Origin: Trypanosoma brucei
Lineage: Eukaryota
NCBI GenBank assembly: GCA_000002445.1
Contig: CM000208.1
Span: forward strand, 3,584,001 to 3,648,000
Length of the DNA stretch: 64,000 nucleotides
Reading direction: 5' to 3'
Part shown: in pieces, positions 23,301 through 40,064 of the stretch
Position numbering within the stretch: the first letter of the stretch is position 1
How the letters are laid out: every line of letters starts with the position of its first letter
Notes under the pieces: model-generated
What the model was told of the DNA's origin: nothing
What the model saw: the letters and a program-made list of their open reading frames with translations, nothing else
The model's database searches: none
Position numbers and translations under genes: made by a program

Positions 23301-24556
23301 GCAAAAGAGTAGCAGAGGTGATTAATTTCTCCTACTTGGGTTCCATTTTATTACCATTATTAATTTAGGAACAACTAAATATTAACGAAATAAAGGAAGA
23401 AAACAAAAAAGAGAACGAAAAAAAAGAAAAAGAAAGAAAGAAGATAAATAAAGGGGACGTGGGAGAGCAGAAGAAAAAAAAAGGAAAAGCAAAAGGAAAA
23501 GAAGCTAGAAAAGTAATGGTGCCCATCACATGATGGCAAAAAGGGAAGTGTGTACGTGCCAATGTGGAGGTGAGGGAAGTGAACTGATCCTTTACTTTTG
23601 TCGCGCAGTTGTTATTATTGTAAGGGTTGACTATCATTATTTTTATTGGTGTTATTGTTACTATTATCATTTCAACGAGTAAAGTGAACGATCAGCAAGT
23701 GAATAAGCACGAGCAAGTAACCATTAATAATTATATTGCATACAGTTGTACAATTATGTGTGTAAATGTACCTGTGTGTACGCGTTTTTTTTCCCCCTTT
23801 ATGCTTGTATGTTCGAATCCGGGGATTTAAGTTGTTGTTTTTGTTGTTGTTGTTGGGGTTTTCAAATGTTGTGGGGGATTTCTTCTTCACTCCTCTTCTT
23901 CTTTTTTTTTCTACTTTTACGTTTGGAAGCTCGGCGATACAGAACGCAGAACTTTTCCTTTTTTTTTTTGGTTTAATGCTTATTATTGGTACTGCTGCTG
24001 CTGTTGTCGCTGTTGTTGTTCATTCTAGTCAACATCCTCTCTCAATCGGCCCTTTCCCGTCCTTTCCATGTTATTTTCATTATTTCCACCGCAGTCGCCA
24101 CCATCGTGTTTTCGATTCCCCATCCCTCTTTCTCTCTTTCTTTCCTTTCATTTTTTTTGTTATTATTACTGTTTTCATTGTTATTGTCTCTGTTGCTGGC
24201 CCTTATTAATCGCAATTGTTACTCTTCTTTTCACCTCCATCCCCCTCTTTTTGTGTGTTGTGTGTTTGTATGTGTTTGGCTGTTGTAATTTGTTTGTTTG
24301 TTCTTTTTTCACCTCCCTCCTTCCAACCCCGCATCTTATATTTCGGGTGTCGGGACTGCAACTTCTTGAAAATACCTTTTTTTTTTAATTTTTTACGTTT
24401 GTCGTCGTTCTTTTGCCTCCCTTTTTTTTTTCCTCACTTCGGTGATACTTCCTCCCTTCCTTCCCTTTCTTTTTCCCTTTCTTTTTTGTTTTTGTATGTG
24501 TCTTATATCCCACTTTTTTTCTTTTTTGAGCAGCAAAATAAAAAAAGAAACACATA

Positions 24557-24557
24557 A

Positions 24558-24600
<43 letters not shown>

Positions 24601-24601
24601 A
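24557..24601 (+). repeat. (CA)n-(TA)n compound microsatellite
   Basis: cacacacacacacacacatatatatatatatatatatatata. Confidence 0.9.
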
Positions 24602-26347
24602 TGATAATAATAACAACGGAAACGATGATGGTGATAATATGTATAGGTGTGGATGTATATGAGGATGTATGCGTACATATATATATATATATATATATGC
24701 ACGGGGGGTTCTGAAAAGGATATAAAAAAAAACGTAGAGGCGTCATAATTTGAGTTTACTTTTTTCTGTTTTTTGAAAGGGTTTCGTCTTATTGTTTCGT
24801 ACTTTTTAAAATATCATGGTAATATGGGTAAGGAGGAAGTTTTTTTTTTTGTTCAAAAATTAACATTATGTCCGACGGTGTGTGGTTTGTGGTGCGATTG
24901 TTGTCTGTTTCGTCCGCGGTGTGCGATTTGGGGTTTGAGGGAAGCAAAAAAAGAAAAGATTTGAAATAAAGGAGGGTGTAATTTCCCACTATGGTGACGT
25001 TATTGTTGTGGGTTTTATCAGATGATTGTTTATTATTACCATTATTAGTATTACTATTACTACTACTTTCCACTGTTTCGCTTTTCTTTTTTTTCCTTTT
25101 TCCTTTTTTTTAAAAATTCTATTCCCCTCCCTTGCATCAGTTTCGATGATTAAACACTTACGTTTTGATCACAAATTTTGTGTGAAGCTTCCTCTCTTTG
25201 ACTTTAGTTTTTTTTTGTTTTTGGCGCTCCCATTTGATTTGATCTCTCTTTTTAAGTTTCGGTTTCCCACTCTGTCACCTTCTCCCCTCCCTTTAAATCC
25301 TCACTTTAGTCTTTTGTTGTATTCGGGTATCCATGTTGCGCTACGCCCAGCTGTTTGGAATATTACTTCGGAAGATGAAAAGTTCGGTTTATTTATTTAT
25401 TTATTATTTTTTTTTACGTTCTTTCTTTCTTTCTTCGACATGTTTGTTTTTTCCTATTCTCGAAATCAAAGGCATCACCAACACCACCACCACCAGCAGA
25501 ATTAAGTGAACACATCCGCGAGTTACTGCCATGTGTTAATCCCTTTGCCTTTCTACCCTTCGATGATTTTAAAAAAAAAATTTCCCTTTCGTTTCATGTT
25601 TTTCATCTATATTTTCTTATTCATCCCTTTCTTTCTTTCTTTCTTTTTTCTTTCTTTTTTTCATCCCTTTACATATATAAATAAATAAATATATATATAT
25701 ATATATATATATTTGAGATGTCTTCTTCCCTCGTATCCTCTGTTGCCCTCATTTTACGCGTCCAGAAACTTCCATCATGAGGTGTGACTGCTTTCTTTCT
25801 CCTTTTTGGTGTTAATATGTCTTCAATTCCCTTATAACTTATTGTAATGTTAATTTACCATTCAAAAGGGTTGAAAGATAGAGGGAATGTGTTTTGTTTC
25901 TGTGATATCCTGCTTTAAATTTTTGTCTTTTAATATCTTATTAAGCTTTCTACTCTCTCTCTTTTTCTTTTTTTTCTTTTTGTCCCCCTCCTTTAAAGTT
26001 TTTTCTCGCATATTTTCTCTTGTCCCGTCATCTTTTTGTGCTGTGGTTGTTGGGTGCCGCACATTTTTATGCATACCTCGTTGATGCGGTGATGAAATGC
26101 TGACTTTTTTTTTTTAAAAAAAAGAATCTATCGCGAAGGAGGCTCGATATGTTTGTTGGTTCATCTGTGTGTAAACACATAAATATGTCTTTTTATGCAT
26201 GATTGCCATCAATTTGTTCGTTTCTTTGTTTGCTCGGTTTGTTTTCGTTACTTTTTGTTGTTCCTCATCAACCCGTGTTCCCTCCTTCCGTGAAGGTGGT
26301 TTTAATCTGTTTGTGAATCCGTTTTGTTTCTGTGTGTTTGTGTGTCT

Positions 26348-27465: not shown

Positions 27466-30400
27466 ATGACGTATAAGGAAGTCGCGCTTTCGTCTCAGTT
27501 AAATGGTGTGTTCCACTGTGCCGCAGTTGTTACCCTTCGAACAGCACCGGCAGACACGCTTCACCACCCGGTGTCGAGCAGTGGGACACACAAGCAAGTT
27601 CCTGATGGAGGTGTGAAATGTGAGGAACTCGAAGGAGATAATCGCCGTAGCCGCAGCCCTTCCATAACTGTTTTCACAGTTTTAAACCCCAAAGCGGCGT
27701 CGTCTTCTCTGCAAGTCCGCCAACTCCCCCAACAACCCCCAGAGGAAATGCGTTGCACGCTGTGGGTAGGAGCAAGTAGCGGTGATATTGAGGTGCGGTC
27801 GGCGGTACAACCTGACCGTGTACTTCGTTTTGTACCAAAAAAGTCGCGGGCCGTTGTTACTTCACTCATTCAAATTGGTTCTAGCCGCGTGGTCGCCGGC
27901 CTTTCCGATGGGTATATTCGTGTATTTGACGCCGTCACGCTGTGCGAGTATCAGCAGACGCGAGCGCACACGTCTGCTGTCAGGTGCCTGATGGCCGTGG
28001 CAACCCCAATAGTACAAGGAGTTCAACCAGAATGTGAATTTACACCTGCCCCAGTTTTCCTGACGGCGTCTTCCGATCGTACAATAGCAAAGTGGGATGC
28101 TGTATCCTTACAGTGTCTCTGTAGGCTGAAGGGACACACGTGTTCCGTTTCAGCATTAGTGTCGACACTTAACGGTGTCTTTGTTTTTAGCGGTGCTGAC
28201 GATGGGTCGCTGCACATGTGGTCGATGGTCGATAATACACAAGTGGTGGGGAGGCCCACTACCGTTGCCAAGAGTGCGGGTAAAAAAAAGCGAACTGGAA
28301 AGGACCTTTTAGGACCTTCTCCTCATCGACAAAAGTCACAATTACCGAAATGTAGCTTGGAGGAACCTCAAGTAAAACAAACGAGCCAAGCGAGCGGTCG
28401 TGGAGCTTCTCAGGCCAGGCCGGGGAAGTGTCGTACGAGTAGGTCCGCTTCCGTAGGAATAATGAAGGTGCGGAGCCTGCTGCGCTCGCCTTCTATCGGA
28501 AGCCCTCAAAGGCATCGGGTTGACGGAGGGGGAACAGGGCGCTCGCGTTCAATTGCAGCCATGCAAAGACATGGTCTCTTGCCAAAAATTAACTGGGGAA
28601 AAGATCTTGCGTTGCCTACCACTGCCGCTAGGGCACCAAATACTGCCACGAGGGATTCTGACAGTGACAGGCAATTTGATGGAAGTTCAGATGACGAAAA
28701 CCTGTTGACTGCGGAGCCTGTTATACCTGTCGATGGCCAAGGCTCAGCAGTTTTCTGTCGGAGTGGGCGAAATGTTGGTGATGGTGTGGGCGCTCCGCGA
28801 GAGGGAAGGAAAGGTCGAGGCAAGCTGAAAAAGAAATCTGCGCAGCAAGTGCAGGTGTCACGCTTCGCGGATGTACTCGCAAAGCTTCAAGGCCCTGTTT
28901 CTGATAGCGCGATGGGTTGCCGCCTGGCGGCGGTGCATTCGGAGCCTGTTGCATCTGGAATAGAGGGTGGTACCCTCCTTTGGCCATTGAAGTGTGAGCA
29001 CGCTAAGCGGATTACTCACCTGGCCATTGTTTGGGACCGGTTTTTGCTAAGTGGGTCGTCTGATGGTGAAGTCAAAGTTTTAGCTCTGCCTTCTGGCCGA
29101 TCAATTCGCACTGTCCACAGAGGTTACACTCCTGTGACAGGTATGACTGTCGATAACGCTCGTTGTTTGCTGTGGATTGCAACAGCGGATGGCTGCTTTC
29201 ACGTGCACAATATGTTGACTCCGGATTTGCAACAACTGCATGCATGGCGAGACCTCAGCACTCCACGACCCCTTTTAGTACCAATGACAACGAATCGCTT
29301 GTTATGTCAGCTTTATCTACTGGCAGCACCTGGAAGTAAGAAGAAGTTGTTTGACAGTCGTAGTGCTGGAAACAAGATCAAGCCAAAGATCAACTTGGAA
29401 AGTAGAAATATCAATTGTAAACGGAAGAAGACGGGACAAGTAGCCCCTACCGACCAAGGAGCCCAGTCTGGGTTAGTTGAACCTGAAGAAGCGGTTCAAG
29501 CGCCGCCTAACGCAACATTGGCGTGTATTCAGGTGGATGATGGGGACGATGAGGCACTGGCCGATATAGGTTCGCTTCGCAAGTTGGACGTTGCTCATAT
29601 GAAAGCGCGCTGTACAATCGCCAAAATGGAATCGAAAGAGGAAGTGTTCCGTAGGGTATTGCGCCGACCTGTAACCGACGATGGCATGGAGTTGCGTGAG
29701 TGTTTGTTAAAGGAGCAAACACGCGTTGTCAACGCCTTATATGGTACTCGCTTTCATTTTTCTCTACGGGATTCGTTTAGGCGCTGGATGGCCTGGTCAA
29801 CGCGGCGCGTTAGACGGTACCAATGTATGCGAAGGGTGCGGTTTCTGGCGGCAACTAATCAGGAGCGCCTACTCGGCTGCTATTTTAGGAAATGGAGGCG
29901 GCACCGTGTCTCACAGAGACTTGTAGAGCAAGACGTGCAGATAAGATCGTTGGAGTCTCGTTCCTTCAGTACAACGGTGGAGCGCTGTGCGAAACCTTGT
30001 GGTGTGGCTCTTGGTGGCAGGGCATGCGTCGCCCTCGCAAGCACACAACGGCGCAACCTGCTGCATCGTTACTACAGATACTGGCTTCATCACGTCGTAG
30101 GTTTACGGCAGGCGCTGTCGCGTTCTGTGGCCTTCAACCGTTTGTTCCTCTCGTTTGACTCCAAAGTGTGTGACAGTGCCTTCGTGTTCCGTCGGTTAGC
30201 AACGACCAACCAGTGCGCACAACGACAAAAGCGGGCGCTACAACTGCTGCTGCTGCGGATGGAGGCTCACTACCGTCAACTGCAGCACCGCTGTATGCGA
30301 AGGTGGTTTTCCTTTCTCCAGGATCAAAGAGAGTCGCGGCAGACATACAATCTCGTGGAAACGCTCACATCTGTGTTAGTCAATGGGGAGGCACTTAGGA

Positions 30401-32370
30401 TGAGTGCCTACTTCAAGTGGTATAGGTTCGCATTGTTTGAAACAAAGCTTCACCGCTTTGATGAAGAGCGCGCGACGCTGCAGCGGGAGTGGATCGTTGT
30501 GCAGAACGCACTAGAAAGTAAGGAAACCGTGGCTAACCTGAAGCAGGAAGAGGTGCAGTTGGAGGTTGAAATTGCCCAGTTAGCATATGAGCGTGATGAA
30601 ATAGACTCACAGAATGTCTCGCTTCGTGCGGATATTGTACACATCCAAATGAGCAAGTCTCTTGACTGTATTCTCGCCGGGTACGTTGACGCGGAGGATA
30701 AACTGAAGACAGTTCCGCGGTTATTACCGGAACCTCCATTTCACAGCCGCCGTTTGTGGACTTCCAGCGGCGAGCGGTTTTCCCCTGTGAATGAGGATGA
30801 CTCGTCTGCTGAGGCAGCGTTACTCAGTCAGCTGTCCGCCGTGTTGCGCGCACTCAAAGCTACGGTTTTACGTTGTAGGCGGCACTGTAGTCTTATCACG
30901 ACATCCCATGACCGGGTGCTGCGAATTCCTATTTGGGACAAGCCGGTTGAAACGCGAGAGTGGAGCTCCGGAGTTTCACATTCATCCGTTGGCGGCGATT
31001 CGTCGGCCCTCCACGGAACGTCAGGGGCTTCTTTATCAGACACACGCTATTCGAGTGAGCGCCGCAGGAGCATCGCCAGCTCCACTCATACGGTGGCGTA
31101 CCTAGCTGATGAGTTTGGTCGAACTGTGGGACGTCTTCGTTTGCTTATTGAGGAGGTCGCCAGACAAGCCGGTGCTGATCTCGAGGAGTCGACGGACCAA
31201 ACCCTGTCCGCCTTCTTGAAACACAAGAATTCCATTGGTATGGGCAGTGAGAGCATTCGGGTGATAAACGCAGAGTGCCCGTCAGTGGAGTGGCTGAATT
31301 TTGTCCCCTCCACCAAACGAGCAGAGATCCTTCCGCTCCTTGCGGATTTGGTGACCATGTATGACTCGTTTAAAGCGCATAGCGATACTGAAATAGAGAC
31401 AGGCGGGAAGACATTGTCAACTAGGGGTGCGCTCACATCTGCACCACTGCCGCTGCGGAGTTTGTGCCGGACGCAAGCGGCGATGTGGCTGGTCCGCCAT
31501 TCCGCCGTAATATTGGAGTTAATGGCACCGGGCACATGGGAAAAGCATTTAAATGTGTGGTTTTTAGCGGATTCGATGAAGGATTCGGTGGCGCTGTTCA
31601 ACCAAAATCTGGACGTAGGGTTGGCAACACCAAAGCGAACGAAAAAGAAGGAGTCATCAGCCGAACTGAAGGACACTTCTTCAATCCTGTCAGACATCTC
31701 CTTCCAGCCATCAAAGGCAGTTGTGAAGGAGAAACGCAAGAAAATTCCCAAGACTGTTGCTAGTGGTAAGGGTACCCCTAGAAAGGCGTCTTCAGTTTCC
31801 TCCCCCATCACGTCACAGCCTAGTGTGGAGAGCACACCCGTAAGATTATGGGCGTCACCCAAAGCGGCGATTGTTCAGCCACAGCGAAAGCCTGCCGTAT
31901 CCTGTAGCAACCTCCACTCTCCGGTTAGCCGCAGCGTGTGTGGACCTCTGGATGGTGAGTTTGTTGTACATGCAGCGCAACGCTCTAATTCGGTTCCCCT
32001 ACGACATCACAGTGCTATCTCGAGCTCAAGGTCTTTTGCTTCTGCTCCGTTGACGCGCCCTTACCTTGGGTTCCGTGTTGCCGTTGGCCGCGACAGCAGT
32101 GGATGTACAACACTATCAATTCAGGAAGTCACCCAAACTTACACCGGAAGTAATGGTGGCGCTGATCTTATGGGTCCAGCGTTTGCTGCCGGATTGCGCG
32201 TCGGTGACCAACTCGTCCGCTTTGCAGGTTACACAGTTACAGAACTGGCTGCGTTCAATACTGTTGTGGCAAGGCACGTGCGACCCTCGGCTTCTATTCC
32301 CGTTGTATTCTCCCGTGATGGCGTAGTAATGTCCGCCACAATTGTGGTTGGTGAGAAAAGAAGGGAGTGA
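27466..32370 (+). CDS. Large hypothetical protein: N-terminal WD40 repeats, central coiled-coil/Arg-rich region, C-terminal PDZ-like domain (1634 aa)
   Basis: WD-repeat signatures are visible (GLSDGYIRVFD, SSDRTIAKWD, GADDGSLHMWS, GSSDGEVKVL). The C-terminal segment GFRVAVGR…LSIQEVTQ…AGLRVGDQLVRFAGYTV…VVFSRDGVVMSATIV has PDZ-like topology. Confidence 0.8.
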   Translation: MTYKEVALSSQLNGVFHCAAVVTLRTAPADTLHHPVSSSGTHKQVPDGGVKCEELEGDNRRSRSPSITVFTVLNPKAASSSLQVRQLPQQPPEEMRCTLWVGASSGDIEVRSAVQPDRVLRFVPKKSRAVVTSLIQIGSSRVVAGLSDGYIRVFDAVTLCEYQQTRAHTSAVRCLMAVATPIVQGVQPECEFTPAPVFLTASSDRTIAKWDAVSLQCLCRLKGHTCSVSALVSTLNGVFVFSGADDGSLHMWSMVDNTQVVGRPTTVAKSAGKKKRTGKDLLGPSPHRQKSQLPKCSLEEPQVKQTSQASGRGASQARPGKCRTSRSASVGIMKVRSLLRSPSIGSPQRHRVDGGGTGRSRSIAAMQRHGLLPKINWGKDLALPTTAARAPNTATRDSDSDRQFDGSSDDENLLTAEPVIPVDGQGSAVFCRSGRNVGDGVGAPREGRKGRGKLKKKSAQQVQVSRFADVLAKLQGPVSDSAMGCRLAAVHSEPVASGIEGGTLLWPLKCEHAKRITHLAIVWDRFLLSGSSDGEVKVLALPSGRSIRTVHRGYTPVTGMTVDNARCLLWIATADGCFHVHNMLTPDLQQLHAWRDLSTPRPLLVPMTTNRLLCQLYLLAAPGSKKKLFDSRSAGNKIKPKINLESRNINCKRKKTGQVAPTDQGAQSGLVEPEEAVQAPPNATLACIQVDDGDDEALADIGSLRKLDVAHMKARCTIAKMESKEEVFRRVLRRPVTDDGMELRECLLKEQTRVVNALYGTRFHFSLRDSFRRWMAWSTRRVRRYQCMRRVRFLAATNQERLLGCYFRKWRRHRVSQRLVEQDVQIRSLESRSFSTTVERCAKPCGVALGGRACVALASTQRRNLLHRYYRYWLHHVVGLRQALSRSVAFNRLFLSFDSKVCDSAFVFRRLATTNQCAQRQKRALQLLLLRMEAHYRQLQHRCMRRWFSFLQDQRESRQTYNLVETLTSVLVNGEALRMSAYFKWYRFALFETKLHRFDEERATLQREWIVVQNALESKETVANLKQEEVQLEVEIAQLAYERDEIDSQNVSLRADIVHIQMSKSLDCILAGYVDAEDKLKTVPRLLPEPPFHSRRLWTSSGERFSPVNEDDSSAEAALLSQLSAVLRALKATVLRCRRHCSLITTSHDRVLRIPIWDKPVETREWSSGVSHSSVGGDSSALHGTSGASLSDTRYSSERRRSIASSTHTVAYLADEFGRTVGRLRLLIEEVARQAGADLEESTDQTLSAFLKHKNSIGMGSESIRVINAECPSVEWLNFVPSTKRAEILPLLADLVTMYDSFKAHSDTEIETGGKTLSTRGALTSAPLPLRSLCRTQAAMWLVRHSAVILELMAPGTWEKHLNVWFLADSMKDSVALFNQNLDVGLATPKRTKKKESSAELKDTSSILSDISFQPSKAVVKEKRKKIPKTVASGKGTPRKASSVSSPITSQPSVESTPVRLWASPKAAIVQPQRKPAVSCSNLHSPVSRSVCGPLDGEFVVHAAQRSNSVPLRHHSAISSSRSFASAPLTRPYLGFRVAVGRDSSGCTTLSIQEVTQTYTGSNGGADLMGPAFAAGLRVGDQLVRFAGYTVTELAAFNTVVARHVRPSASIPVVFSRDGVVMSATIVVGEKRRE

Positions 32371-32800
32371 CGCAAGTAGAAGACAACTCATACCTATTGA
32401 TGTTCTCTTATAATGATTAGGGATACTTTTCATTTTAAAATTCTCTCACGTCGACCCTAATCAATATCTCCCCCTCTCCAAACAGTGTACCGTACTTCCT
32501 AGACAGGCATTAACTCTTCCTTTTTGCCTCTCCTACCCCACTCATTTCCTTTTTGTACTATCCTCATCAAATAGGAACGTTGGTTCACACCTTCACGACA
32601 CGTAAAGCATTCACAATTACACCACAAACATAATAATAACAGCAACTTCCTTCTTTCCTTCCTCTTACAAAATGCTTTTCCTTCTAATTGCCACACTCTC
32701 GTACTTTCATCTGTATTGTTTCTCCATTTGCTCTTTCCTTAAGTTAGCGCAAACGTCACACACTGTGTTTTGAGAAACTTCTACACTTTGTGAAATTACA

Positions 32801-33496
32801 ATGGTGGTCATACATAGTGGACTTGTAACTCCCGTATTGGAAATTATGTCACTAGTTAAGCCGTTACCTTTTGATGTGGATGTGTTGTTGGATGAACATC
32901 CCGATATGACAGTTTATCATCGCCCTCCATTGCGGAGCCGTGGTAGTGGAAGTAAATATATTTGCAATCATCATCCTGTTGAATTGCTTTCTTATGAAGT
33001 GTACTTGTGTGATACGGAAGATGAACCAGTTGTCGATTTTGAAGTGGATAATCAAATTGTCGTACGATATCAACTTAACCCGTATTGTGCTGCTTCAGAG
33101 TTTCCATTTCCTCGTGTGTTTGGAAATACAATCTACCGTAACCAAAGACCTTACCTCCGTCCTGCGTATGTGGAAGTTGCACATGGCTCTGGCGGTTGTT
33201 GTTTCAATGGTAGCGGATCATCATATGGCATTAATGTTTGTGTGGCTCCCACTGATATTTTTGCTGGTTTCCCTCGCTCCAATAATGGTGATGATGCTGT
33301 TATTTACTCTACGGTACCCCACATCAGGAAACTCCTACAGCGGCCCTTTTCCCCCTTTATGGAATGTGGTCCCTTAATTGCGGATGATGTTTTCTTTCAT
33401 TGGGATACCCTTGGTTTGCTTAGTTTGACTGATACGTGTGATTTGGGCATGTTCACAATTGAGGGTGTGTGTGGTGTATCCTCACATATTATGTAA
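32801..33496 (+). CDS. Tandem-array gene copy 1: Cys-rich hypothetical protein (231 aa)
   Basis: Intact ORF preserved in all three units. This copy carries the divergent mid-cassette ASEFPFPRVFGNTIYRNQRP. Confidence 0.75.
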   Translation: MVVIHSGLVTPVLEIMSLVKPLPFDVDVLLDEHPDMTVYHRPPLRSRGSGSKYICNHHPVELLSYEVYLCDTEDEPVVDFEVDNQIVVRYQLNPYCAASEFPFPRVFGNTIYRNQRPYLRPAYVEVAHGSGGCCFNGSGSSYGINVCVAPTDIFAGFPRSNNGDDAVIYSTVPHIRKLLQRPFSPFMECGPLIADDVFFHWDTLGLLSLTDTCDLGMFTIEGVCGVSSHIM

Positions 33497-33999
33497 TTTG
33501 CACTGAAATGCGTCATTACTTAATATGTGAAGGGTGCTATTGTTATTTTATTCCATATATTATTATATCACATGAGTCTCCCGCTACAATCACGTGGCAT
33601 TGTGCTGTGTGTCATCGGGTAGTTTAATATATTTATATATATATATATATTCTTTTTTTCTCCTTCACATAATTATTGTGGACGGTAGTTAATAATGCAG
33701 TATTTTTAATTGATTAGTGTCCTGGGGTTCTTCATCGTATTTGTTGATATGTTTGCTTGTTTGTTTCTATTACTTACATAACTGTTATATATATATATTA
33801 AAATTTTTTCTTACCGTTGTCACTCTTTCATTTTCTTTTCTGCAACCGATTGTTATCATACTTCCTTTGTCTAACTACATCACTAATTGCCACACTCTCG
33901 TACTTTCATCTGTATTGTTTCTCCATTTGCTCTTTCCTTAATTTAGCGCAAACGTCACACACTGTGTTTTGAGAAACTTCTACACTTTGTGAAATTACA

Positions 34000-34692
34000 A
34001 TGGTGGTCATACATAGTGGACTTGTAACTCCCGTATTGGAAATTATGTCACTAGTTAAGCCGTTACCTTTTGATGTGGATGTGTTGTTGGATGAACATCC
34101 CGATATGACAGTTTATCATCGCCCTCCATTGCAGAGCCGTGGTAGTGGAAGTAAATATATTTGCAATCATCATCCTGTTGAATTGCTTTCTTATGAAGTG
34201 TACTTGTGTGATACGGAAGATGAACCAGTTGTCGATTTTGAAGTGAGTAACCGAATTGTCGTACGATATCAACTTAACCCGTATTGTGCTGCTCAACTTT
34301 CACACCTTCGTGGGTTTGAGCCTCTCGTATATCCCTACGAGAGCCGTTACCTCCGTCCTGCGTATGTGGAAGTTGCACATGGCTCTGGCGGTTGTTGTTT
34401 CAATGGTAGCGGATCATCATATGGCATTAATGTTTGTGTGGCTCCCACTGATATTTTTGCTGGTTTCCCTCGCTCCAATAATGGTGATGATGCTGTTATT
34501 TACTCTACGGTACCCCACATCAGGAAACTCCTACAGCGGCCCTTTTCCCCCTTTATGGAATGTGGTCCCTTAATTGCGGATGATGTTTTTGTAAGGTGGG
34601 GAAGTAGCGGTTTGCTTAGTTTGACTGATACGTGTGATTTGGGCATGTTCACAATTGAGGGTGTGTGTGGTGTATCCTCACATGTTATGTAA
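34000..34692 (+). CDS. Tandem-array gene copy 2 (230 aa)
   Basis: Same ORF as copy 1, with mid-cassette AQLSHLRGFEPLVYPYESR and C-terminal variant VFVRWGSSG. Confidence 0.75.
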   Translation: MVVIHSGLVTPVLEIMSLVKPLPFDVDVLLDEHPDMTVYHRPPLQSRGSGSKYICNHHPVELLSYEVYLCDTEDEPVVDFEVSNRIVVRYQLNPYCAAQLSHLRGFEPLVYPYESRYLRPAYVEVAHGSGGCCFNGSGSSYGINVCVAPTDIFAGFPRSNNGDDAVIYSTVPHIRKLLQRPFSPFMECGPLIADDVFVRWGSSGLLSLTDTCDLGMFTIEGVCGVSSHVM

Positions 34693-35207
34693 TTTGCACT
34701 GAAATGCGTCATTACTTAATATGTGAAGGGTGCTATTGTTATTTTATTCCCTTTATTATTATATCACATGAGTCTCCCGCTACAATCACGTGGCATTGTG
34801 CTGTGTGTCATCGGGTAGTTTAATATATTTATATATACATATATATATATTCTTTTTTTCTCCTTCACATAATTATTGTGGACGGTAGTTAATAATGCAG
34901 TATTTTTAATTGATTAGTGTCCTGGGGTTCTTCATCGTATTTGTTGATATGTTTGCTTGTTTGTTTCTATTACTTACATAACTGTTATATATATATATAT
35001 ATATATTAAAATTTTTTCTTACCGTTGTCACTCTTTCATTTTCTTTTCTGCAACCGATTGTTATCATACTTCCTTTGTCTAACTACATCACTAATTGCCA
35101 CACTCTCGTACTTTCATCTGTATTGTTTCTCCATTTGCTCTTTCCTTAAGTTAACGCAAACGTCACACACTGTGTTTTGAGAAACTTCTACACTTTGTGA
35201 AATTACA

Positions 35208-35900
35208 ATGGTGGTCATACATAGTGGACTTGTAACTCCCGTATTGGAAATTATGTCACTAGTTAAGCCGTTACCTTTTGATGTGGATGTGTTGTTGGAT
35301 GAACATCCCGATATGACAGTTTATCATCGCCCTCCATTGCAGAGCCGTGGTAGTGGAAGTAAATATATTTGCAATCATCATCCTGTTGAATTGCTTTCTT
35401 ATGAAGTGTACCTGTGTGATACGGAAGATGAACCAGTTGTCGATTTTGAAGTGAATAACCGAATTGTCGTACGATATCAACTTAACCCGTATTGTGCTGC
35501 TCAACTTTCACACCTTCGTGGGTTTGAGCCTCTCGTATATCCCTACGAGAGCCGTTACCTCCGTCCTGCGTATGTGGAAGTTGCACATGGCTCTGGCGGT
35601 TGTTGTTTCAATGGTAGCGGATCATCATATGGCATTAATGTTTGTGTGGCTCCCACTGATATTTTTGCTGGTTTCCCTCGCTCCAATAATGGTGATGATG
35701 CTGTTATTTACTCTACGGTACCCCACATCAGGAAACTCCTACAGCGGCCCTTTTCCCCCTTTATGGAATGTGGTCCCTTAATTGCGGATGATGTTTTCTT
35801 TCATTGGGATACCCTTGGTTTGCTTAGTTTGACTGATACGTGTGATTTGGGCATGTTCACAATTGAGGGTGTGTGTGGTGTATCCTCACATATTATGTAA
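35208..35900 (+). CDS. Tandem-array gene copy 3 (230 aa)
   Basis: Mid-cassette as in copy 2, C-terminal patch VFFHWDTLG as in copy 1. Confidence 0.75.
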   Translation: MVVIHSGLVTPVLEIMSLVKPLPFDVDVLLDEHPDMTVYHRPPLQSRGSGSKYICNHHPVELLSYEVYLCDTEDEPVVDFEVNNRIVVRYQLNPYCAAQLSHLRGFEPLVYPYESRYLRPAYVEVAHGSGGCCFNGSGSSYGINVCVAPTDIFAGFPRSNNGDDAVIYSTVPHIRKLLQRPFSPFMECGPLIADDVFFHWDTLGLLSLTDTCDLGMFTIEGVCGVSSHIM

Positions 35901-36129
35901 TTTGCACTGAAATGCGTCATTACTTAATATGTGAAGGGTGCTATTGTTATTTTATTCCCTTTATTATTATATCACATGAGTCTCCCGCTACAATCACGTG
36001 GCATTGTGCTGTGTGTCATCGGGTAGTTTAATATATTTATATATACATATATATATATTCTTTTTTTCTCCTTCACATAATTTTTGTGGACGGTAGGTAA
36101 TAATGCAGTATTTTTAATTGATTAGTGTC

Positions 36130-36300
36130 CTGGGTTTCTTTTTTTGTCTTTCTTATTTTTGCTTTTTGTTTTAAAATAAAATTTGATCATTATTTAAGCT
36201 TCCTCAATTGTTCAGTGGTTGGTTGGTTATCGTTTTGGATGATTTGAGGTTGTGTTTTTTTTTTGACCTTTTCTTATTTGAGAAAGGAAAGGTTTGTGTA
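36130..36300 (+). promoter_or_regulatory. Pyrimidine/T-rich tract upstream of RPS13
   Basis: ctgggtttctttttttgtctttcttatttttgctttttgtttt … gttgtgttttttttttgaccttttcttatttgag ends just before the ATG at 36311. Confidence 0.4.
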
Positions 36301-36310
36301 GTTGTAGGCG

Positions 36311-36766
36311 ATGGTGCGCATGCATGGTAATGGTCATGGCAAGGCTGCATCGGCCTTGCCGTACCGCCGGACACCACCGACGTGGTTGAAATCCTCCAGC
36401 CGGGATGTTATCGATGCCGTTTGCAAGTTGGCAAAAAAGGGGCTTTCACCAAGTCGTATTGGCATGCAACTTCGTGACTCGATGGGTATCGCGCAAGTGA
36501 AAAATGTGACGGGCCGCAAAATTTTGCGCATTTTAAAGCACAAGGGCATGGCGCCTGAGATCCCTGAGGATTTGTACTGCTTAATTAAGCGGGCAACTCA
36601 AATGCGTAAACACCTTGAGCGCAACACGAAAGATAAGGATACGAAGTTCCGTCTTATTTTGGTTGAGTCCCGCATTCACCGCCTTGCACGGTATTACAGA
36701 CGTGTGAAGCAACTTCCGCCCACGTGGAAGTACGAGTCCAGCACGGCTTCAGCCATGGTTGCATAA
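36311..36766 (+). CDS. RPS13: 40S ribosomal protein S13 (uS15)
   Basis: [20 protein letters not shown]…[31 protein letters not shown]…[40 protein letters not shown] is a near-invariant S13 sequence. 151 aa. Confidence 0.95.
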
Positions 36767-37296
36767 GCATTTTTTTTACTTGTGTTTCCTGCCTTGTTGC
36801 TTGCGATCTTTTCCGCTCCCTGACATTTTTATTTTGGTAACTTCTAACTCGCATTTTGTTAATACTCAAAAGTGGGTGACGGTCTATCTTGAGGGTTGCG
36901 TCGACATCTCTTGCATTACCGTTGACTTTGTTCGAGTTATCTTCTCTGCGGTATCTGTTTCCCCACATTCTTCCGTTTGTCTTCTAGTAAGCGTATCTTT
37001 ATTTGTGTTGTTAAGGAGGATCAGTGCTGTGGGAGCGGAGAGAAGTCGTCGAAGTCAAGAAGTAGTGCCACTTTGTGCGAAAAGGTTTTTTTCCATTTTT
37101 TTTTTTTTAAAAAGGAGGCCAAGCACCTGGGTAGTGCGGCTTTTTCGGATTAGACAGAAAGCCGGAAGGGGTAAAGGCGGTATTTGTCACGGTACAACGG
37201 CTTTGAGGTATTGGCCACTTTCCAACTGCCTTTTATCGAATTCGCGAAGCGTGGAATTAGGTTCCCTTCATCTTTTTATTTTTATACTCCTAGAAA

Positions 37297-38064
37297 ATGG
37301 CGTCAAAGGGTTGTTTCATTGCCGTTCTTATAGCACGTACGCATGATCATGTCCCTTTGTGTAGTTTTACCGATGAAAACTACGCCAATTGGAATCAGAT
37401 CAGGCAACAGGAGCAGCGTATTCTTGAGCGAATGGAGTCACCGGCGTCGGTACCAGATTCAGCAGGGACGAGAGGAAGTTACTACCAGAGCTTTGACCAT
37501 AAGGACTGTATTTACTTTGCATTTCAGGATGCGGGGACGGGGTTGACGATTATCACCGTTTTAAACAAACTTCTTTTGCGCAATTCCAGTGACGTTACGT
37601 CGACTAACCATCTTGCGTGTAGTCTGTTAGACATGATCTTCTCTGAGTTTACGCAGGCTTACTCCACATCCGAGATTTCAGCCAGGACAGTTCGTCCCTT
37701 TCAGTTTATAAAATTTGAATCCACTCTAGAAAAACTCATACACCGCGTGCAACGCGAACGACAAAACGATGTTGTTAGCGATTCGCACGGTGGACAGCGA
37801 CGTCAGGTTAATACGCAGTACGATGCAATTAAACAGGAGCTAACAGACGTTCACTTCGTTATGCGCAAGAACTTGGAAGACCTTATGGTGCGTGGGGAGA
37901 AACTTGAGACAATGAATCAGTTTAGCGCCCAGCTGGTGGATGAAAGCTCTCGGTTCTACAAGAAGACGGCTCGCATGAACAGGATGCGTTTGTTAAAACT
38001 GTACGGCCCTCCTGCTGTAGTGATTAGCATTCTAGCTCTCTTCTTCTACCTCTACCTGTTCTAA
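37297..38064 (+). CDS. SEC22: Longin-domain R-SNARE, Sec22-like
   Basis: N-terminal longin fold (CFIAVLIART…) and RPFQFIKFESTLEKLI matching Sec22 RPYSFIEFDTFIQK. The SNARE heptads carry a central Arg (DVHFVMRKNLEDLMVRGEKLETM), followed by a C-terminal TM helix AVVISILALFFYLYLF. Confidence 0.85.
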   Translation: MASKGCFIAVLIARTHDHVPLCSFTDENYANWNQIRQQEQRILERMESPASVPDSAGTRGSYYQSFDHKDCIYFAFQDAGTGLTIITVLNKLLLRNSSDVTSTNHLACSLLDMIFSEFTQAYSTSEISARTVRPFQFIKFESTLEKLIHRVQRERQNDVVSDSHGGQRRQVNTQYDAIKQELTDVHFVMRKNLEDLMVRGEKLETMNQFSAQLVDESSRFYKKTARMNRMRLLKLYGPPAVVISILALFFYLYLF

Positions 38065-38813: not shown

Positions 38814-39188
38814 ATGTCATTGAGGGAGATTGAACTTGCCCAGGTGCAACCACGGGAGCACCTCCTTCACCCGTGTGATGTGATCCAACGAAGCGCATTT
38901 CAGCGTGACAATGCGGAGCGGTTGCATCGTATACGCACGACACTTGGCTGGGGTGCGGCTGCTGATACCGCTCTTACAGAAACAACGCTCCTCTCGTCTC
39001 GCCGTCTCGGTGCATTGCCAAGCAGCTTTGCGTTATATCACCATTACCGCGGTACCGCGTCGGAGTTGACACCGATGGATATATATGGCCAACCGGAGGA
39101 TGATCCCAACGTGCAACCATCATCCCGATCCGTGGTTGAGAAGCTTGTGTATGGGCATGAGTTGACGATGAAGAACATGGGGATGTAG
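38814..39188 (+). CDS. Small hypothetical protein (124 aa; the ORF is open from 38709, but the upstream part translates a pyrimidine tract)
   Basis: + strand ORF between Sec22 and the Pol subunit gene; start placed at MSLREIE. No recognisable domain. Confidence 0.35.
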   Translation: MSLREIELAQVQPREHLLHPCDVIQRSAFQRDNAERLHRIRTTLGWGAAADTALTETTLLSSRRLGALPSSFALYHHYRGTASELTPMDIYGQPEDDPNVQPSSRSVVEKLVYGHELTMKNMGM

Positions 39189-39683: not shown

Positions 39684-40064
39684 ATGTTTTTCTGTCCATT
39701 CTGTGGAACGCTACTGTTGATTGAGCCGGCCTATCCGTGCAATCGTTTCTCATGCTCCAGCTGCCGGTACGTCGTGCCAATTCAGTCACGGCGCCCGCTC
39801 ACTATTAATCATTCGTTCCTAAAGTACAATAAGGTTGTGGATGATGACGATGAGAAGGGAAGCTCAAATACGGTGAAACGAGGCGTGAAAGAGGAGGAAG
39901 AGGTGGATGGAGGCCAGGTGATTACTGTGCGTTGTCAGAATGATGAGAAGCAGTGCGATGGCGACCGGGCACACTACGTGCAGATACAGATGCGCTCCGC
40001 TGATGAACCGGCAACAACGTTCTTCAAGTGTTTGAAGTGTGGCTTCCAGTGGAAGCAGGATTAG
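39684..40064 (+). CDS. DNA-directed RNA polymerase small subunit with TFIIS-type C-terminal zinc ribbon (RPC11/C11-like or RPA12-like)
   Basis: N-terminal zinc ribbon MFFCPFCGTLL…CSSCRY and C-terminal ribbon CQNDEKQC…RSADEPATTFFKCLKCGFQW. The SADE acidic hairpin is characteristic of the cleavage-competent C11/A12.2 subunits. Confidence 0.8.
   Translation: MFFCPFCGTLLLIEPAYPCNRFSCSSCRYVVPIQSRRPLTINHSFLKYNKVVDDDDEKGSSNTVKRGVKEEEEVDGGQVITVRCQNDEKQCDGDRAHYVQIQMRSADEPATTFFKCLKCGFQWKQD

Follow-up and report, generated by a model that had tools for sequence, protein, structure and literature searches.

A three-copy tandem array of an orphan Trypanosoma gene on T. brucei chromosome 10, homogenised outside three diverged patches

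Segmental conversion of variant surface glycoprotein (VSG) genes exchanges short divergent blocks between related genes, and the resulting mosaics involve subtelomeric archive genes and the expression site, under immune selection on the surface coat. Exchange of short divergent blocks likewise marks the subject of this study, a three-copy tandem gene array at 32684-36171 of a 64,000-nucleotide stretch of Trypanosoma brucei chromosome 10 (GenBank assembly GCA_000002445.1, contig CM000208.1, positions 3,584,001 to 3,648,000 of the forward strand; hereafter the window); unlike the VSG mosaics, this array lies inside the chromosome, would be transcribed constitutively together with the housekeeping genes beside it, and lacks predicted surface features. 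The ISG65 (Tb927.2.3270-3320) and PAD (Tb927.7.5930-6000) arrays, which encode membrane or surface proteins with known roles, also consist of tandem copies in one polycistron with flanks in concerted evolution. They too are sequence mosaics that differ between subspecies (PMC2854126), whereas the chromosome 10 array lacks predicted signal peptide or membrane features and carries its variation in two or three very short patches. The dosage arrays for histone H2B, tubulin, and calmodulin share the head-to-tail arrangement, the repeated spacer, and concerted evolution; these encode abundant conserved proteins and are essentially invariant, with a synonymous divergence (Ds) of 0.000 for histone H2B and 0.0056 for calmodulin (Jackson 2007, PMC1855330, Table 1), in contrast to the three copies, isoform differences, and window-lowest GC content at third codon positions (GC3) reported here.

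The locus itself has been catalogued before, as T. brucei array 111 (PMC1855330, PMC2854126). It is listed as Tb10.61.1420 (Tb10.61.1420-1400) on chromosome 10, with three copies of a 696-bp coding sequence (CDS) spanning 3100 bp at 3555423-3558522, and with signal peptide, transmembrane helix, and Pfam domain all recorded as absent (Jackson 2007, PMC1855330, Table S3); the catalogued span corresponds to 32801-35900 of the window. Subsequent work reported three copies each in T. b. brucei and T. b. gambiense and, for these six copies together, a PHI p<0.001 and five breakpoints inferred by GARD (Jackson et al. 2010, PMC2854126, Table 2). The array is thus real, ordinary for T. brucei, and already published as recombining, and the novelty implied by an earlier note on this DNA does not stand. 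Both publications present the array as table rows only, as compared with the patch-level detail given below, and a literature search with old and current identifiers and UniProt accessions found no main-text mention beyond these two catalogue tables. The accessible parts of the two papers (PMC1855330, PMC2854126) do not describe the patches, their synonymous divergence, or their coincidence with variable sites in T. vivax, nor do they describe the genus restriction, the absence from Leishmania, or the low GC3. What remains of interest, and what we did not find described, is an orphan, genus-restricted protein whose variable patches coincide across species. The locus as a whole is probably best explained as a genuine three-copy array, homogenised except at three diverged patches, that supplies a few isoforms.

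Structure of the array

Self-BLAST and a repeat search placed three head-to-tail units at 32684-33882, 33883-35090, and 35091-36171 (95-97% identity, E = 0), all on the + strand, and the ORF list confirmed an intact open reading frame (ORF) of 230 or 231 residues in each, as the earlier note had described. Its periods of 1201 and 1207 bp required correction, since successive ORFs start 1199 and 1208 bp apart (1196-1200 and 1208 bp by register in the repeat search). When positions 31000-38000 were compared with themselves, off-diagonal alignments paired 32684-34966 with 33883-36171 at 96.2% identity and 32684-33766 with 35091-36171 at 95.4%, and self-BLAST detected no additional copies of the unit within the window. 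Tandem Repeats Finder did not report the array because its longest period is 500.

Unit 1 (1199 bp) comprises a 117-nt shared upstream flank, the first copy of the CDS, and spacer; unit 2 measures 1208 bp, and unit 3, at 1081 bp, is truncated, its likeness to the others stopping approximately 271 nt past the stop codon, from where a unique spacer extends toward the gene for ribosomal protein S13 (RPS13). The flanks had been called identical, and alignment bore this out for the 117 nt before the ATG and the ~271 nt after the stop codon, which are common to all three copies; the remaining ~120 nt of spacer are common to the two internal spacers only. We also recovered the (TA)n tracts and the GSGGCCFNGSGSS patch that had been noticed in the array. 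The intact coding sequences occupy 32801-33496 (copy 1, 231 aa), 34000-34692 (copy 2, 230 aa), and 35208-35900 (copy 3, 230 aa), all on the + strand. Reading the sequence ahead of copy 2, we found a stretch (33805-33946, +) in which a pyrimidine-rich tract precedes the first AG dinucleotides, ~55-60 nt short of the ATG, and which is the predicted trans-splice acceptor region of this copy; equivalent pyrimidine tracts precede copies 1 and 3. Every unit additionally contains an alternative-frame ORF of 105-145 aa (32940-33377, 34256-34573, and 35464-35781, +), and these are taken to be by-products of the repeated sequence, not genes.

Copies resemble one another more closely within a species than orthologues do across species, which supports the concerted evolution proposed in the earlier note. 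The T. brucei copies are 92-97% identical among themselves and ~35% identical to their orthologues, those of T. melophagium differ from one another by 1-3 nt, and the 13 coding sequences of T. vivax differ at 16 of 702 nt and specify four protein isoforms.

Variable patches within and between species

Identity is distributed unevenly along the coding sequence. Variable columns number 49 in the 696-column alignment of the three T. brucei copies, and 46 of them fall inside three patches, HV1 to HV3, that together occupy 83 nt, leaving 3 differences in the other 613 columns (binomial P = 4e-39, for windows picked after seeing the data). Inside the patches, identity between copies falls to ~35-45%; the near-perfect identity previously ascribed to the coding sequence does not hold uniformly along it. 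HV1 (CDS nt 247-254, codons 83-85; 33047-33054 in copy 1, +) has four variable columns, in codons that also vary among the T. vivax copies. HV2 (CDS nt 295-350, codons 97-117) differs between copy 1 (33095-33150, +) and copies 2 and 3 (~34294-34346 and 35502-35554) by 29 substitutions and a 3-nt indel, and HV3 (CDS nt 594-612, codons 198-204; 33394-33412 in copy 1, +) has 13 variable columns, all 13 separating copy 2 from copies 1 and 3, in codons that are dimorphic in T. vivax. At the protein level, the alignment of copies 1 and 2 has 231 positions, of which 25 carry substitutions and one an indel, 26 differences in all.

Typing the patches in each copy revealed that copy 3 is a mosaic of the forms found in copies 2 and 1. 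Copy 1 carries DNQ at HV1, an orthologue-like form A at HV2 (ASEFPFPRVFGNTIYRNQRP), and FFHWDTL at HV3; copy 2 carries SNR, a form B at HV2 (AQLSHLRGFEPLVYPYESR), and FVRWGSS; and copy 3 combines NNR and form B with the FFHWDTL of copy 1. Further combinations occur in related genomes, with form A joined to FVRWGSS in T. equiperdum OVI and in one T. b. gambiense copy, and a recombinant HV3, FVRWDTL, in one T. b. equiperdum copy. All four combinations of HV2 and HV3 are thus present among Trypanozoon sequences, in agreement with the published recombination signal. At HV2, form A is orthologue-like, matching T. melophagium at 14 of 23 residues in a manual alignment count, and form B is divergent but equally long. 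The nucleotide alignment gave no support to the idea that HV2 arose by a compensated frameshift: the substitutions are scattered and the sole indel is an in-frame 3 nt.

Silent divergence is likewise concentrated in the patches. By the Nei-Gojobori method, the number of synonymous substitutions per synonymous site (dS) in the patches is 1.32 between copies 1 and 2, 0.64 between copies 1 and 3, and 0.21 between copies 2 and 3, with corresponding nonsynonymous values (dN) of 0.52, 0.31, and 0.13; outside the patches, copies differ by 0-1 synonymous changes per 133 synonymous sites. Such high dS next to near-zero values elsewhere indicates that the patches are old or imported sequence rather than fresh mutations.

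In the 13-copy array of T. vivax, nearly all variation is confined to two of the three patches. Five of its variable nucleotides map to nt 247-255 and nine to nt 594-608, so that 14 of the 16 fall within 24 of 702 nt, and seven of the eight variable protein columns are also variable in T. brucei (hypergeometric 1.5e-6, which in effect amounts to two patches of two). Codon 85 alternates between Q and R within T. brucei, within T. vivax, and between T. melophagium and T. theileri, and codon 199 is one of three variable sites among the T. melophagium copies. The HV3 forms are FFHWDTLG and FVRWGSSG in T. brucei and FISWDAAG and FIRWGSVG in T. vivax, and codons are common to the two species in each form: TGG-GGA-AGT in one and TGG-GAT-(A/G)CC in the other. 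Across the 21-nt HV3 core, T. brucei copy 2 shows 7 differences from the R-type copies of T. vivax, as compared with 12 from T. brucei copy 1, whereas the 21-nt flanks of this core group by species (0-1 differences within, 5-6 between). This pattern suggests an old dimorphism kept in both arrays, or else convergence, and its ~7 codons are not conclusive.

The protein family and its genomic setting

The T. brucei proteins are acidic (pI ~5), have a mass of ~25.5 kDa, and contain no transmembrane segment. Each has nine Cys (3.9%), not the ~14 counted earlier, and being Cys-rich does not define the family: C55 alone is conserved across species (7 of 9 lineages), and C146 is common to T. brucei, T. 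congolense, and T. vivax only. The N-terminal 19 residues have a mean Kyte-Doolittle value of 1.8, interrupted by Glu; this hydrophobic stretch is not conserved, the orthologues bearing charged residues there inside a conserved (L/V)(I/V)TP(V/L)(F/L)EI motif. No GPI-type hydrophobic C-terminal tail is present in the T. brucei proteins. Searches of Pfam, PDB sequence profiles, and PDB folds returned no significant match, in keeping with the earlier impression that the protein belongs to no recognisable family, and AlphaFold models were unusable, with a predicted local distance difference test score (pLDDT) of 28 from the single sequence and 36 from a 17-sequence alignment.

Searching 1.84 billion cluster representatives exhaustively with phmmer yielded 10 matches, nine of them Trypanosoma proteins; the weakest (E 3e-5) was a repetitive yeast protein aligned over 29 residues. 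Members from T. theileri, T. grayi, and T. cruzi marinkellei, and more from T. melophagium, came from a profile search, which returned none outside Trypanosoma. The family is an orphan one, detected in this genus only. It comprises two old lineages: type A, which includes the T. brucei genes and is marked by IYRNQRPYLR, and type B (P0014, P0015, and P0030 in our numbering), marked by V(Y/F/H)ESxxLR. Type B occupies an unrelated locus in T. melophagium (L002, 8001-8741) and is also represented in T. vivax (P0014) and T. theileri (P0015); a word-indexed search, which also missed known family members, detected no type-B member in T. brucei or T. congolense. The motifs LRYQLNP, LR..(F/Y)(V/L)E, CG(I/V)N(V/L), IYST(V/I)P, and LIVDDVF..W..G..SLNEL are family-wide. 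The family is under purifying selection: comparison of type A between T. melophagium and T. theileri gave a dN/dS of 0.20 (dS 0.55, dN 0.107), indicating a real, constrained protein-coding gene. We also encountered fragmentary members. Two T. rangeli proteins with adjacent locus tags (P0016 and P0017) are fragments of 116 and 172 aa, and that of T. cruzi (P0018) is a 170-aa fragment with a scrambled C-terminus; these could be pseudogenes or assembly or annotation errors. The T. cruzi marinkellei protein (P0029) looks intact.

The gene occupies one syntenic slot in several trypanosomes, with one copy in T. theileri, one in T. melophagium (and two more downstream), three in T. brucei, and 13 in T. 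vivax. On a 2.9-Mb contig of T. vivax the order is WDR1, the 13 copies (L004, 4001-19103, GCA_021307395.1), and VAMP, and the period of 1191-1212 bp is almost that of T. brucei; a second T. vivax contig (33.9 kb) also bears copies. T. theileri has WDR1, one copy, and VAMP, and T. melophagium has WDR1, one copy, RPS13, and VAMP, beyond which two further intact copies alternate with a conserved 124-aa gene. In Leishmania tarentolae the WDR1 orthologue is followed by RPS13, VAMP, the 124-aa gene, and an RPB9-like gene, and the slot is empty: neither tblastn nor a hidden Markov model (HMM) search found a trace of the family in the syntenic 26.5 kb. Accordingly, the gene either arose at this slot in Trypanosoma or has been lost from Leishmania.

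In T. brucei, the array lies between WDR1 and RPS13. All three proteins match entries XP_827982-4 of T. brucei brucei TREU927 chromosome 10 exactly, which agrees with the trypanosomatid origin suggested before; a separate exact-protein look-up with copy 3 returned no record. WDR1 (Tb927.10.15080; 27466-32370, +; 1634 aa, with WD40 and PDZ matches in Pfam) is the upstream neighbour and anchors both locus and synteny, three published phosphopeptides (SPSIGSPQR, DLLGPSPHR, and KPAVSCSNLHSPVSR) all lying inside the 1634-aa ORF. RPS13, the 40S ribosomal protein (36311-36766, +; Pfam Ribosomal_S13_N and Ribosomal_S15), is the downstream neighbour, and IFT52 (Tb927.10.14980) serves as a further anchor for locus numbering. 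From this numbering, we infer that the current identifiers of the copies are Tb927.10.15090, 15100, and 15110. The candidates Tb927.10.12240-60 were rejected, as Tb927.10.12260 is a dipeptidase.

All ORFs in the window with a Pfam match are on the + strand, which places the array within one directional gene cluster. Recognisable genes are IFT52, IFT80, lipoyl synthase, a protein kinase, WDR1, and RPS13, together with a VAMP-type SNARE, an RPB9-like zinc ribbon, NAP, CCDC53, and CBP30. Across positions 1-64000, cumulative GC skew climbs steadily, and this rise and the + strand genes fit a single polycistronic transcription unit. Between 23300 and 27466 lies a 4-kb stretch without an ORF of ≥180 aa, in which no tRNA or Rfam match was found; within it, 24001-26000 has a GC of 0.34 and an AT skew of -0.35, and several (TA)n tracts occur at ~24576-24700 and 25684-25713. 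Downstream of the array, a 124-aa ORF (MSLREIELAQ...KNMGM; 38814-39188, +) has homologues in other species without a recorded Pfam match, and a gene of the same length also follows VAMP in T. vivax, T. melophagium, and L. tarentolae. This 124-aa gene is triplicated in T. melophagium, where it is interleaved with the extra array-gene copies, and the annotated T. melophagium protein P0031 is a fusion of the two genes. A 126-aa ORF rich in Cys pairs (39684-40064, +) occupies the position that an RPB9/TFIIS zinc-ribbon gene (121-151 aa) holds at the syntenic loci of L. tarentolae and of T. melophagium, T. vivax, and T. theileri.

Explanations for the array and its patches

Under the established trypanosome model, the three copies would be co-transcribed and each mRNA would be trans-spliced at the first AG behind its own long pyrimidine tract, ~55-60 nt before the ATG, with polyadenylation of each mRNA in the preceding spacer. 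The units would be homogenised by gene conversion or unequal crossing-over, which, with the patches left diverged, would yield a small isoform set and not extra dosage only. The patches may be surface loops between conserved beta-strands that tune partner binding, and the array might then supply a few isoforms of a cytosolic binding protein; we propose both with low confidence. In a low-confidence AlphaFold model, HV1 precedes the strand at 86-91, HV2 lies between the strands at 86-91 and 121-123, and HV3 falls at a hairpin spanning 192-207.

Several observations weigh against this account. Placement of the patches in loops comes from models with pLDDT of only 28 and 36, and convergence over the ~7 codons concerned could explain the HV3 forms shared across species. 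The hydrophobic N-terminus of the T. brucei copies could act as a weak signal or anchor, and the 13 mostly identical copies of T. vivax are compatible with a dosage role in that species. For expression, localisation, and knock-down, the supplement of Jensen 2009 gave only the entry 'mosaic, no probe', for Tb10.61.1400, and the array identifiers were not found in the accessible supplement text of the TrypTag, Dejung 2016, and Naguleswaran 2018 papers.

The main competitor is a plain dosage array, whose copies would serve only to raise expression in a genome that lacks gene-specific promoters and whose patches would be neutral leftovers not yet erased by gene conversion. In T. brucei, mRNA and protein abundance go together with GC3-rich codon usage, and the GC3 of the array ORFs, 0.33-0.35, is the lowest among 23 ORFs in the window, against 0.58 in the adjoining RPS13 and 0.37-0.58 in the other ORFs overall (0.44-0.58 apart from one 215-aa ORF without a Pfam match), which argues against a classical high-expression array. 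Moreover, the protein exists as three distinct isoforms, whereas the copies of a dosage array are essentially invariant in protein sequence; one copy suffices in T. theileri; and neutral leftovers would be expected neither to coincide by codon between T. brucei and T. vivax nor to persist when 613 other columns hold three differences. On the other side, extra dosage is, in the accessible parts of the catalogue paper, the usual interpretation of most T. brucei arrays (Jackson 2007, PMC1855330), the 13 T. vivax copies produce only four isoforms, and homogenisation extends over the flanks and most of the CDS. We consider a plain dosage array unlikely. Between the two roles raised in the earlier note, high dosage or diversification, the reshuffling of patches between copies and strains and the codon usage together suggest that diversification fits the array better. 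Ectopic conversion might instead have brought the patches in from a divergent paralogue at an unlinked site, one candidate donor being the type B lineage. Such a lineage does exist at another locus, 'ES' is common to HV2 form B (VYPYESRYLR) and type B (VYESAHLR), and a patch identity of ~43% resembles replacement more than gradual drift; yet no type-B gene was detected in T. brucei with the word-indexed search, which missed known members too, form B has the type-A length and matches types A and B about equally (~8 of 20-22 residues, manual count), and the window holds no donor-like sequence elsewhere. Given also that ectopic conversion is very rare in such arrays (Jackson 2007, PMC1855330), import of this kind appears improbable.

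Nor do we give much credence to a Cys-rich secreted or surface protein of a host- or vector-facing family. Nine Cys, the hydrophobic N-terminus of the T. brucei copies, and variable patches of a kind typical of surface families speak for it, whereas the absence of a conserved Cys framework beyond C55, the charged N-termini of the orthologues, the missing GPI-type tail, and the published record of neither signal peptide nor transmembrane helix (PMC1855330, Table S3) make it very improbable. That the array is an assembly artefact, or its ORFs non-coding, is effectively refuted. Assemblies from short reads do break or collapse at this locus, as a T. equiperdum OVI contig stops within the array and a Logan contig represents a collapsed single unit, but separate assemblies contain three annotated copies in T. 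b. gambiense, at least two in T. b. equiperdum (on a 4.1-Mb chromosome-scale record), and 13 in T. vivax, and all copies and species examined have an intact ORF, alongside the dN/dS of 0.20 noted above. The Logan contig, which encodes an identical protein, was also considered as a transcript and rejected, being a collapsed genomic unit with no spliced-leader sequence.

A more far-reaching version of the isoform-supplying array holds that the patches are alternative binding loops whose variants have been kept in the array since before the split of T. brucei and T. vivax, that is, a trans-species polymorphism between tandem paralogues. We regard this as a speculative proposal with a small chance of being correct. 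If true, a trans-species polymorphism would have been held against continuous homogenisation of all surrounding sequence, and a Trypanosoma-only intracellular protein would recognise a partner that exists in two or more forms.

The isoform-supplying array has consequences of its own. Islands of old, synonymously diverged sequence occur at the same codons in two distant trypanosomes while the rest of the gene is homogenised. If selection maintains the patches, they would show, in a compact natural setting, selection working against gene conversion, and they would point to the functional surface of an uncharacterised protein confined to Trypanosoma. The family that encodes it is present in African trypanosomes and the T. 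theileri group and is possibly decaying in T. cruzi and T. rangeli, and the patches offer a concrete experimental handle on a protein that is otherwise 'hypothetical conserved'.

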